Source: Alphaproteobacteria bacterium (lineage in GTDB: Bacteria > Pseudomonadota > Alphaproteobacteria > VGEJ01). Taken from it: a stretch of DNA of 64,000 nucleotides. The stretch covers positions 68,425 to 132,424 of the forward strand of contig CBDDBU010000024.1 in assembly GCA_965226045.1 (NCBI GenBank), written 5' to 3'. The position numbers and the translations under genes were made by a program. Positions 32,346 through 37,736 of this stretch are shown one piece after another (the stretch's first letter is position 1; each line of letters begins with the position of its first letter). The notes below the pieces were generated by a model. It made no database searches, was not told where the DNA came from, and saw nothing but the letters and a program-made list of their open reading frames with translations.

Positions 32346-33800
32346 TCAACTGGGTGGTGCGGCCATCGGCCACCAGCTGCCATGGAACGTCAGCGGAATC
32401 GCCTGGGTTAACTGCACGCGGACCCGAGGTGTGAGCGTCCGCGCATCCAACACGGCCACGTGGCTGCGCGCCGTGTGGCTGTCGTAGACCAGGGTGAGCA
32501 CCGAGCCACCGTTTTCGCGCCCGGTCTGGCTTTGCGCCAGCACCGGCTCCGAGCAGAGTTCTCCGGGCGCGAAGGTGTGGTGGCGCACGGCGCCGTCTTC
32601 GTCGATGCGGCTGATCTGGAAGTGCATCACGCCATCGACATAGCGGCTGCTTTGCCGCCAGATGTGCTGGTGGCGACCGCCCGCGACCTGCTCCGCGATT
32701 CGCGGGTACTCGCAATGCCCGTCCCATAGCGGAGCCGAGCGCAGCTTCTTCTTCGCGAGATCGATCCGGGCCCGGTGCAGCTCGCCGTGGACATGGGCGC
32801 TGGGGTCCGTCCACGACAGTTCGGTGCCGTCTCCGAGCGCCCCCAACAAGCGGCTGTCCGGGTAGCGGACATAGTCGACGACGATCTCTCCCCGGTCTTC
32901 AAAGGCGCCGGCAAAGTGAAACTGGCAGAAGGGATCGGTGCGAAAGCGGATCGGACGGTCGGGGGTGTTGATCGGCACCACGATGACCTCGGTTCCATCG
33001 GACGGGGTCCACTTGAAATTGTCAGTGAACGACCGCAGCGCCATCATCATCCGCCACACGACCAGGCGCACCGGTGAGACGAAGAGCACCAGATGCTTGT
33101 CGGTGGCGATTGAAGTCATGCAGCAGCACCGGGCGGGACAACGGGATCCGGCCCAGAAACCGGGCCGGCCCGTCGTCGGGCAGCGCGAACAACGTCAGTG
33201 TGGTCTGCTTCCCGTAGGACATGCCGAAGTTGTAAAGCGTGCGGCGACGGGCCACCCGATGTGGATGGGCCGAGAATGTCGTCGCAACGACGCCGCCCAG
33301 ATCGGACTCGCCGATTGTGCGCAAGGAGTCAGGGTCGAGTTGAGTGGGCCTGCCGCCCTCGTTCAACGCTTACAACGCCCCCCGCCACTCGACCACGTGG
33401 GTGTTGGCGGTGTTCTTGAGCCGACCGGTGAGCATCCGGCGCACCCGGGTGGGCCAGGGCGCCGCGAAGCTGCTGAGGTGTCGGCCCGCCGCGCGCTCTC
33501 CCCGCAATCCGGCGCTCTCGATCACCCGTGCCGCCGCGAGCGCGCCACCATCGGCGAACCAGATCGCCGTGATCGCGCCGTCGCCCTCGAACAGGTGGTC
33601 ATAGTGGCGTGCGAATTGTTCGAGGATGCCCGGACCGTTCCGGTACAGCGTGCCGCGAAGATGTACGGGGAGGGTGCCCTCGACCTGGACGGGCTCGAAG
33701 CCGTGCTCGCGGGGGGCGGTGCGGGCGCGTTCATCGCGACGTGTTGGGGGGGCGTGGCGCGGGCGCCGTTTGCTCGCCAGGCGGAACACTGGCACCCGAC
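32346..33800 (-). pseudogene. Carotenoid/lignostilbene cleavage dioxygenase family, two frameshifts
   Basis: GTLYRNGPG..GDG / SAHPH..LLHDF / FHFAGAF..CSEPV..TFHGSW across three frames, with breaks near 33370 and 33115; start not resolved. Confidence 0.85.
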
Positions 33801-34396
33801 GGGTCGCTGTGCCGCGCCCGCTTCGTGAACCGTTCCAGTTGTTCGCGGATACCAATGGGCCACCCTGAGACGAGTTGAGCGAAGGTGTCGAAATCCTGAG
33901 CGAAAAGCGCGCGCGTGGCCTCTTCGAAGTCCGGTTGGTCACCGGCGATATCCCACATGAAACAGTGCGCGGCATCGATCGCCTGGCGGGTCTCCTCGTG
34001 GGGCGCGCCCTCTTTTCGGGCCGCGTCGACCAGTTTGCGCAGGGTCGCCGAAGTGCCGCCGCGCTTTGCGGCGAGCCAACGCCACTGGTGCGGCAGGAGC
34101 GACACCTCGCGCGAGACGACCCCGAGTTTGGGCCTGCCCGGCCCCCTTCGTTTGGCGGATTCTTGGGGTGGCGGCGCGACCATGGGGTGGGCCGCGAGCT
34201 TGGCCAAGACCGCCGCCTCGTCGCCAGTGAAATCAATGTCCACCGGACGCCCGGTCTCATGGTCGAACACCGCCACGCGCTCTTGCTCGCCCTGATCGAG
34301 CCGAGCCTTGCAGCGGCGCGCAACGTCGGCCGGCGCGCCTCGTGCGATGACGACGGTGCCGGCGAAGGCCACGAATATTTTAGGTGTGGTGCTCAT
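33731..34396 (-). CDS. DUF2239 family protein
   Basis: FDHETGRPVDID, RGPGRPKLGVVSREVSLLP..W.WL..GGTSATLRKLV, EEATRALFA. Confidence 0.88.
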   Translation of the reverse strand: MSTTPKIFVAFAGTVVIARGAPADVARRCKARLDQGEQERVAVFDHETGRPVDIDFTGDEAAVLAKLAAHPMVAPPPQESAKRRGPGRPKLGVVSREVSLLPHQWRWLAAKRGGTSATLRKLVDAARKEGAPHEETRQAIDAAHCFMWDIAGDQPDFEEATRALFAQDFDTFAQLVSGWPIGIREQLERFTKRARHSDPSGASVPPGEQTAPAPRPPNTSR

Positions 34397-34455
34397 CCGG
34401 CTAGTATTAGCCGGGTAAAATAGGATGTCAATATTACCCGGCTAATAATAGCCGG
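34397..34455 (-). promoter_or_regulatory. Promoter with a double-palindrome operator upstream of the DUF2239 gene
   Basis: Two CCGGCTA-N4-TAGCCGG boxes (34397-34414, 34438-34455); minus strand TTGACA-17 bp-AATACT-6 bp-ATG. Confidence 0.8.
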
Positions 34456-34468
34456 GGTCGCCCGTGGC

Positions 34469-34900
34469 CTATGCCGCCACCGTGACCTTGTCGCCGGCCT
34501 CGATGACCTCCCGCGGCCTCTCCACACCCTCGAAAGTCACTTCGATCTCGATTCCCTGGGGATCGTGAAAGAAGATTTGGTAGAGCTCGATATCCGGCAA
34601 GTTGGCCTCCCGGTAGGCCACCCCGAGCTTCTCCAGGTGAGCCTTGAAGCCGTCGCCCCCGCGCGCGGTGAAGGCGAAGTGATTGAACGCGGCGCTGCCT
34701 TCGCCAACATCCTCCTCAAAGGCAATGACATGGACGCGCGGCTTGCCATCGGCGGGATAGAGCCATATCCCCTTGACCCGGTCCGCGATCGACGGGGGTC
34801 GAAAGCCCACTTCAAGCCCGAGAACATCGCAATAGAACTTACGGGTCGCCTCCAGATCGTTGGTCGAGATCGTTACATGATCGAGCGTGTTCATTTCCAT
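34469..34900 (-). CDS. VOC (glyoxalase-like) family protein
   Basis: LDHVTI..DLEATRKFYCDVLGL, NHFAF, QIFFHDPQGIEIE. Confidence 0.9.
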   Translation of the reverse strand: MEMNTLDHVTISTNDLEATRKFYCDVLGLEVGFRPPSIADRVKGIWLYPADGKPRVHVIAFEEDVGEGSAAFNHFAFTARGGDGFKAHLEKLGVAYREANLPDIELYQIFFHDPQGIEIEVTFEGVERPREVIEAGDKVTVAA

Positions 34901-36927: not shown

Positions 36928-37736
36928 GGCATTGTCAGAGTAAGCCATGTTGGCCTGCGAAGGCCGCCGTGCTGAGGTCATCAGGCCGCCAGGTGTCGAC
37001 ACTCAGCCAGCGCGGCGGAGCGGTTTTGCTTGAAAGTGTCACGGCGGTTCAGGTGACGGTCTTGACTGAAGTGATTGTGGATCGAGGCGTGGACGGCGGC
37101 GAGCTTTTGAAGAGTCTTGGCGTCCCGGAATTTTGCCATTGCTCGCTCTCGTCGTCGGAAGGGTTGATGCGAGTTTTCGGCTCTGTTGTTGAGCCACCGC
37201 CCACACTCCTGAGACGAGGCATTCCCGATCAACACCATCGCGGCCCGGTATGAGGGCAGCCGGTCGGCCACGATGGCCTTCGGCCGCCCGTAGCGCTTCA
37301 TCGTCCGCTTCAAGAACTTCAGCGCGGCCCCACGATCTCGACGTTTTGTCGCGAAGGCATCGAGCACCTCGCCTTCGTGATCCACCGCGCGCCAGAGGTA
37401 GTGCGCCTCCCCGTTTATCTTCACAAACACCTCATCGAGGTGCCAGCGCCAACGGGAGTAGCATTGATCCGGCTTCACTCGGCGCCTCCTGATCTCCGCA
37501 GCGAACATTGGACCGAACCGGTTCCACCAGAACCGCACGGTTTCGTGACAGATATCGATACCGCGCTCGAACAAGAGATCCTCTACCTGCCTGAGCGACA
37601 ACGGATAGCGGACATACATCATCACCGCCAGGCGGATCACCTCGGGCGAGCTGTTGAAGTATCGGAAGGGATTCTTCATCGGCCGACACTACGGATCGCC
37701 CCCGCCCGGCTCAAGCCGATTTTCTCTGACAGTGCT
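36928..37736 (-). mobile_element. Complete IS6-family element (~809 bp)
   Basis: Terminal IRs GGCATTGTCAGA and reverse-complement AGCACTGTCAGA; a single transposase; no target duplication. Confidence 0.9.
36981..37679 (-). CDS. IS6 family transposase
   Basis: WHLDEVFVKING..YLWRAVD, IVAD, LNNRAENSHQP. Confidence 0.95.
   Translation of the reverse strand: MKNPFRYFNSSPEVIRLAVMMYVRYPLSLRQVEDLLFERGIDICHETVRFWWNRFGPMFAAEIRRRRVKPDQCYSRWRWHLDEVFVKINGEAHYLWRAVDHEGEVLDAFATKRRDRGAALKFLKRTMKRYGRPKAIVADRLPSYRAAMVLIGNASSQECGRWLNNRAENSHQPFRRRERAMAKFRDAKTLQKLAAVHASIHNHFSQDRHLNRRDTFKQNRSAALAECRHLAA

Follow-up and report, generated by a model that had tools for sequence, protein, structure and literature searches.

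Does the DUF2239 protein control its own gene from the nested palindromes that end at its start codon? The question arises from a 59-bp element in a 64,000-nucleotide stretch of alphaproteobacterial DNA, which is referred to here as the window. The original prediction took this element to be the operator of a probably leaderless promoter and DUF2239 to be the protein that binds it. The architecture of the element, its distribution across bacterial genomes and the predicted fold of the protein each bear on the answer.

The DUF2239 promoter region

The DUF2239 gene occupies positions 33731-34396 on the minus strand and encodes a protein of 221 amino acids. This protein matches PF09998 with E = 5e-63 and 212.6 bits (gathering cut-off 25) over profile positions 2-180 of 182, which places it in the DUF2239 family. 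Upstream and in the same orientation is a VOC/glyoxalase-family gene (34469-34900, minus strand), and the same synteny is present in the related loci L014 and L016. The VOC stop codon (34469) lies 72 bp upstream of DUF2239, and the minus-strand text of the spacer between the two genes is ccCCGGCTATTATTAGCCGGGTAATATTGACATCCTATTTTACCCGGCTAATACTAGCCGGATG. The operator patch has a G+C content of 46%, versus 66% for the whole window.

A sequence search bears out the presence of two exact CCGGCTA-N4-TAGCCGG boxes in this spacer. The proximal box (CCGGCTAGTATTAGCCGG, 34397-34414) and the distal box (CCGGCTAATAATAGCCGG, 34438-34455) are 41 bp apart, measured start to start. They are the only two exact copies in the whole 3.23-Mb assembly, and 0.32 matches would be expected by chance in the window even when up to two mismatches are allowed. 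The boxes were also described as the arms of a larger dyad. The dyad is indeed present, but its arms (34397-34421 and 34431-34455, 25 nt each) are complementary at 23 of 25 positions (92%) rather than at 22 of 24. The dyad is centered on 34426, where the minus-strand TTGACA (34431-34426) ends.

The arrangement originally proposed for the promoter, in which TTGACA, a 17-bp spacer, AATACT and 6 bp precede an ATG that lacks a ribosome binding site, is reproduced by a promoter consensus scan. The -35 hexamer TTGACA (34426-34431, minus strand) lies beside site A, defined below, across phyla. The -10 region is TAATACT (34403-34409, minus strand), which is read as AATACT after a 17-nt spacer by the scan and as TAATAC after a 16-nt spacer by homology with relatives. 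TTGACA-17-AATACT scores 10/12 and is the sole sigma-70-like site in 1.5 kb, where 0.3 would be expected. The ATG (34396-34394, minus strand) is located 6 nt past AATACT or 7 nt past TAATAC, with no Shine-Dalgarno sequence.

A CCGG-centered palindrome conserved across phyla

DUF2239 loci were gathered from related genomes, from the contigs of the three closest proteins and from bacteria at large, with one genome taken for each species. Caulobacter vibrioides, among the control genomes, also has a match to the family. The last of these sets covers Alpha-, Beta- and Gammaproteobacteria, Myxococcota, Planctomycetota, Acidobacteriota, Verrucomicrobiota, Sericytochromatia, Desulfobacterota, Bdellovibrionota, Hydrogenedentota, Chlorobiaceae, Gemmatimonadota and Limnochordia. 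Reading of the upstream regions reveals a recurrent palindrome that is centered on CCGG and has the consensus aTATTACCCGGGTAATATTGACA-N9-aTTACCCGGGTAAtAT. Matches to TTACCCGGGTAA with up to two mismatches occur within 250 nt upstream of the gene in 86 of the 93 DUF2239 loci, usually in two copies, and these loci represent about 12 phyla. There are 141 such matches in 24.2 kb of upstream sequence versus 4 in the other 306 kb of the same loci, an enrichment of ~450-fold. Conservation of an operator motif upstream of DUF2239 genes across taxa, as originally anticipated, is therefore observed, but the conserved unit is TTACCCGGGTAA and not the box first noted. CCGGCTA-N4-TAGCCGG cannot be kept as the binding unit, since the conserved palindrome centers on CCGG rather than on N4 and the outer arms of the boxes are restricted to a genus-level clade.

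A pair of sites, A and B, can be defined in 83 loci, and in these the CCGG core is conserved at 96-100% in both sites. The sites overlap the core promoter elements. In 58 of the 83 loci, TTGACA begins 14 nt downstream from the first base of site A, such that site A abuts the -35 element, while the -10 element (TAAtAT) is the right arm of site B. The family-wide promoter reads TTGACA-17-TAAtAT and is near consensus.

In the window, both sites are apparent in the minus-strand reading and differ from TTACCCGGGTAA by one mismatch each, in both cases a rare substitution. Site A (TTAGCCGGGTAA, 34434-34445) has a right flank that enters the -35 hexamer, and site B (TTACCCGGCTAA, 34407-34418) has a right arm that forms the -10 element. 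Site A is the reverse complement of site B. The promoter (TTGACA, 16-17 nt, TAATAC) is consequently bracketed by two TTA(C/G)CCGG(G/C)TAA palindromes. The proximal box takes in the right half of site B, which supplies the -10 element, and the earlier observation that one box covers the -10 is accurate. From these sequence comparisons, the 59-bp element is probably the promoter-operator of the DUF2239 gene.

Sites A and B are spaced 27 or 28 bp apart in 64 of the 83 loci. Cooperative binding had been predicted, and site spacing was considered as evidence for it and rejected. A spacing of 27-28 bp is already imposed by the attachment of site A to the -35 element and of site B to the -10 element, and cooperativity is not inferable from it.

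Some relatives carry a third, CCCGGG-centered site, which in L010 (G011:C1, about 3286740-3286810) is 16 bp downstream from site B. L086 and L089 also have three sites each, and a locus can therefore have more than two.

Association of the motif with DUF2239 genes

A composite of site A and the -35 element, TACCCGGGTAATATTGAC, was searched with up to two mismatches in 61 genomes of the same class. The composite is found in seven of the ten genomes that carry DUF2239, and each match is directly beside the DUF2239 gene. None of the 51 related genomes without DUF2239 contains it (Fisher p = 2.8e-7 for co-occurrence), and the reversed control of the composite has no matches in the 61 genomes. Elsewhere in the window's own genome and nine relatives, TTACCCGGGTAA with up to one mismatch occurs at about the rate of its reversed control, with no sign of a wider regulon. 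An exact TTACCCGGGTAA at G046:C2:1232007-1232018, far from the DUF2239 gene of that genome, could be a secondary target or a chance occurrence.

Some protein other than RNA polymerase must be invoked to explain the conserved cores. The CCGG cores are located at about -45 and -17 and are not part of sigma-70 recognition, so their conservation calls for a dedicated factor. This factor might be a different transcription factor, in which case DUF2239 would merely be the regulated gene, and the lack of a match between DUF2239 and any recognized DNA-binding fold is in keeping with such an arrangement. However, in the genomes examined the motif resides only beside DUF2239 genes. It is missing from all 51 of the relatives in which DUF2239 is absent, and the window's own genome contains no further copy. 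Flanking genes differ between loci, leaving DUF2239 as the sole constant partner of the motif across about 12 phyla, the pattern that marks an autoregulator. We consider control by a different factor unlikely.

No covariation between protein and operator is seen, and both are nearly invariant. The loci with altered cores (CCTTGG/CCGTGG in L040, and CCAGGG in L086 and L096) are paired with essentially canonical binding segments, and covariation is uninformative for this reason.

Predicted mechanism of gene control

A near-consensus promoter with a site placed over its -10 element is the classic layout of a repressor target. The best-supported reading of the locus, and in our judgment a likely one given the sequence evidence, is that DUF2239 is an autorepressor that binds its own promoter-operator. 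Conservation in the two proposed partners runs in parallel, as the GRP-adjacent segment of the protein is the most conserved of the family and the operator is likewise invariant.

DUF2239 would bind both palindromes, probably with one dimer per site. Binding would occur via the segment GRPKLGVVSREVSLLPxxWxWL...GGASxxLRxLV, whose AT-hook-like GRP arm could contact the AT-rich flanks and whose extended-helix-turn-helix unit would suit the CCGG core. Bound DUF2239 is predicted to exclude RNA polymerase from a strong promoter, yielding negative autoregulation, and repression would be lifted by a signal that the N- or C-terminal domain senses. In the window's clade the leader appears to have been lost, which would place the transcription start on the ATG or immediately beside it.

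DUF2239 might instead use these sites as an activator or dual regulator. Site A resides just upstream of the -35 element, a position also exploited by class I/II activators. The promoter, however, is already near consensus in the family and matches at 10 of 12 positions in the window. Site B covers the -10 element and, in the window's clade, the start point too, which is established as a polymerase-blocking layout. Activation is for these reasons improbable.

A clade-specific elaboration of the operator

Sequence comparison indicates that the boxes first noted are a genus-level elaboration of the canonical form, in which each inner palindrome gained an outer CCGGCTA arm. The distal box joins a clade-specific outer CCGG arm to the left half of site A, and the proximal box joins the right half of site B to a second outer CCGG arm, likewise clade-specific and directly adjoining the ATG. 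The operator of this clade has four CCGG cores with spacings of 14, 27 and 14 bp. L014/L015 (92% protein identity) and L016 (82%) share the VOC-DUF2239-RPE65 synteny of the window and keep the entire nested 59-bp arrangement, with the ATG directly past the outer CCGG. L017 (72%) and L010 (67%) have the canonical two-site form with a leader of 31-46 nt and a Shine-Dalgarno sequence. Beyond the window's genus-level clade, no enrichment of CCGG is seen 13-16 bp outward from the sites, and the outer arms are represented by three closely related sequences only.

The operators of L016 and the window are identical at 57 of 59 positions, and the remaining spacer carries a 14-nt indel. When third codon positions of DUF2239 (73% identical to L016) are used for calibration, the probability of two or fewer differences in 59 is p = 2e-6. 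With the third positions of the VOC gene (91% identical) as the neutral rate, operator conservation in L016 is marginal (p = 0.09). The jump in third-position identity at the operator, between the VOC and DUF2239 genes, may mark a recombination boundary.

The outer arms may be extra half-sites or may form RNA hairpins on VOC read-through transcripts. If the latter were their function, the CCGGCTA-N4-TAGCCGG hairpins would act in this RNA as a terminator, attenuator or stabilizer and not as extra half-sites for a protein. The distal box, 13 nt past the VOC stop codon, can form an 8-bp stem of -19.9 kcal/mol (z = -2.5), the second box folds at -12.6 kcal/mol, and for the element as a whole the folding energy is -45.6 kcal/mol (z = -7.0). 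Absence of the outer arms from other lineages is also compatible with a separate role in RNA. Against this, the distal hairpin is not followed by a U-tract (no T-run in the DNA) and the terminator scan makes no call there, and it does not qualify as an intrinsic terminator. Moreover, the inner halves of the boxes belong to phylum-wide DNA palindromes, and transcripts from the element's own promoter would exclude the boxes. An RNA-level role for the boxes in place of protein binding is consequently quite unlikely. Palindromy alone might suggest a sequence that arose by chance or a REP/MITE-like dispersed repeat, in either case without any part in regulation. Such an origin is hardly credible for an element that is unique in its genome and keeps its place beside a single gene family across phyla, and it is contradicted by the enrichment and presence/absence tests.

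Leaderless geometry

Loci divide into two classes by the distance between the -10 element and the start codon, which is 6-8 nt in one and 17-37 nt in the other. Most DUF2239 genes belong to the longer class, mostly with a Shine-Dalgarno sequence, so leaderlessness is, as judged by these distances, the derived state of a few lineages. Members of the shorter class always use ATG and never have a Shine-Dalgarno sequence. They include the window's clade, the Myxococcota loci L023, L038, L053, L069, L074 and L087, and the Planctomycetota locus L096.

In the window there is no room for a purine-rich Shine-Dalgarno sequence between the -10 element and the ATG. The protein has 8 codons ahead of the conserved FxAFxG block, which is the family mode, and ATG 34396 is therefore the homologous start. 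An ATG without a Shine-Dalgarno sequence and with a -10 element 6-8 nt upstream is found in the window, L014 and L016. The leaderless geometry originally proposed is thus kept in the closest relatives, and it has arisen independently in Myxococcota and Planctomycetota, in each case as a matter of sequence geometry. The same spacing and the same lack of a Shine-Dalgarno sequence characterize leaderless mRNAs such as lambda cI and those of many Caulobacter and actinobacterial genes. Unlike these examples, most DUF2239 genes carry a leader, and leaderlessness in the window is predicted from geometry.

The DUF2239 protein

Alignments identify residues 87-123 (GRPKLGVVSREVSLLPxxWxWL...GGxSxxLRxLV) as the most conserved segment of the family. 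Its variants are described by GRPKLGVV(S/A)REV(S/T)LLPRHWxWL..Q.GGAS..LR.LV. GRP is invariant, and is embedded in RGRGRPK in some members and in PGRPK in most. The AF2 model (mean pLDDT 85) has an N-terminal beta-alpha domain (residues 8-68) and then an extended linker, modeled with low confidence, in which the GRP arm lies. Next come a short helix (102-109) and a long one (115-150), separated by a GG(A/T)S turn of five residues, and three further helices complete the model. When the 55-residue segment is modeled alone, it adopts the same extended-helix-turn-helix layout. In the models, this layout fits a ribbon-helix-helix (RHH) monomer.

The resemblance to ribbon-helix-helix proteins that was first proposed for this segment does not extend to any family match. 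No RHH or HTH family in Pfam matches DUF2239, and no RHH family appears even at E up to 10. RHH_1 has no match in the window's own genome when searched in six frames. An hhalign comparison with 24 RHH_1 domains from related genomes gives the expected register, with a probability of 3.4% and E = 0.013 over 16 columns, which is barely better than the E = 0.045-0.05 of control segments. Foldseek returns no PDB match at E < 1 for the full model and no PDB match at all for the 55-residue segment, and PDB profile searches with the full protein and the segment give nothing significant. There is no NCBIfam family for DUF2239. Membership in the RHH superfamily is thus supported neither by Pfam nor by hhalign against the RHH_1 domains of related genomes.

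Likenesses to the RHH repressors Arc, Mnt, CopG, MetJ, omega and the ParD-type antitoxins exist nonetheless. These proteins also use a small segment composed of a strand, a short helix, a G-x-S turn and a helix. Their operators, like those of DUF2239, are palindromic or repeated and lie over the regulator's own promoter, and a dimer per site would be expected. Unlike the RHH families, to which it has no sequence, profile or fold match, DUF2239 has a helix A of just 8 residues. Its module is located in the middle of a three-part protein of 200 amino acids, between the beta-alpha N-domain and a helical C-domain, and is preceded by the invariant GRP arm.

This arm recalls the AT-hook (HMGA-type R-G-R-P core). 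DUF2239 is similar in its invariant G-R-P with basic flanks and in the AT-rich flanks of its operator (TAATATT). It differs in that it falls below the Pfam threshold and that most members read PGRPK. The Pfam AT_hook model gives E = 1.5 and 9.4 bits, against a cut-off of 17.4, for the RGRGRP variant only. A sequence-specific bacterial regulator is, in addition, an unusual setting for an AT-hook. The modeled segment may work like an RHH or HTH unit with a minor-groove arm, and it is assignable to neither family.

Neighboring genes and candidate signals

Genes found repeatedly beside DUF2239 may share a detoxification theme that points to the inducing signal. In loci L020-L099 and L004-L013, a MATE efflux pump is encoded downstream of DUF2239 in 9 of 60 cases and a DSBA-like thioredoxin-fold protein in 7 of 60. 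A divergent glutathione S-transferase (GST) gene adjoins DUF2239 in 11 of 63 loci. In the window itself, the VOC-family gene on the upstream side and the RPE65-type oxygenase on the downstream side belong to the same suggested theme.

In these respects, DUF2239 is similar to the TetR and MarR-like repressors that control detoxification and efflux locally. Both have two palindromes on their own promoter, with operators over the -35 and -10 elements. DUF2239 neighbors (MATE pumps, DSBA-like/GST-kappa-like proteins and GSTs) are of the kind controlled by such repressors, and there is no sign of a large regulon. Unlike TetR and MarR-like proteins, DUF2239 belongs to an unrelated family without a known ligand, and its cassette hardly varies between phyla, an unusual trait in a local repressor.

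A candidate family of transcription factors

Autoregulated repressors with palindromic operators over their own promoters are a well-known kind of system. What is not well known is this protein family, its putative DNA-binding module and the invariance of the cassette across phyla. A literature search recovered no paper on DUF2239 (PF09998, IPR018715, COG4929) or on its motif as an operator, and motif strings appeared in the literature only in cloning primers with SmaI sites.

A wider interpretation that joins these observations is offered tentatively, as a possibility somewhat short of an even chance. DUF2239 would found an unrecognized transcription-factor family with a new or highly divergent module, made up of an AT-hook-like GRP arm and a short extended-helix-turn-helix unit. 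A near-invariant cassette, with TTACCCGGGTAA twice, TTGACA and a -10 element in the second palindrome, would travel self-contained through a dozen phyla, switching on variable detoxification cargo such as GSTs, MATE pumps, DSBA-like proteins and oxygenases. The form found in the window's clade would be derived, its four CCGG cores lying on a lattice of roughly 14 bp, its transcript leaderless and its operator, promoter and start codon fused in 62 bp.

If this is true, a family whose detected relatives exceed 2,000 and span many phyla gains a testable role as a transcription factor, together with a site of 12-20 bp and a defined promoter. A single gel-shift would speak for the whole DUF2239 family, as the operator is nearly identical everywhere. 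The GST, MATE and DSBA-like neighbors point the search for an inducer to electrophiles and xenobiotics. Should the conserved segment not be a ribbon-helix-helix, it would constitute a new DNA-recognition module. The cassette would also be a compact natural fusion of an operator, a near-consensus promoter and, by its geometry, a leaderless start.

The downstream oxygenase and other features of the loci

An RPE65-type carotenoid/stilbene oxygenase pseudogene (32346-33734, minus strand) lies downstream of DUF2239 in the window. Relative to the intact gene of L014, it has lost 31 nt near 33716, acquired an in-frame stop near 33370 and gained 1 nt near 33111. The L014 oxygenase has 472 amino acids and its gene overlaps the DUF2239 stop codon by 4 nt, so the oxygenase was probably the original cargo of the operon. 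Under autorepression by DUF2239, the regulated operon would once have continued into this gene.

A 232-aa ORF located ~2.5 kb from the locus (36981-37679, minus strand) has the look, by eye only, of an IS6-family transposase. In L017-L019 (L017 being the 72% relative), a MazE-like/PIN (VapC-type) toxin-antitoxin pair at 2169-2793 is divergent from DUF2239, and its PIN gene is truncated in L019.
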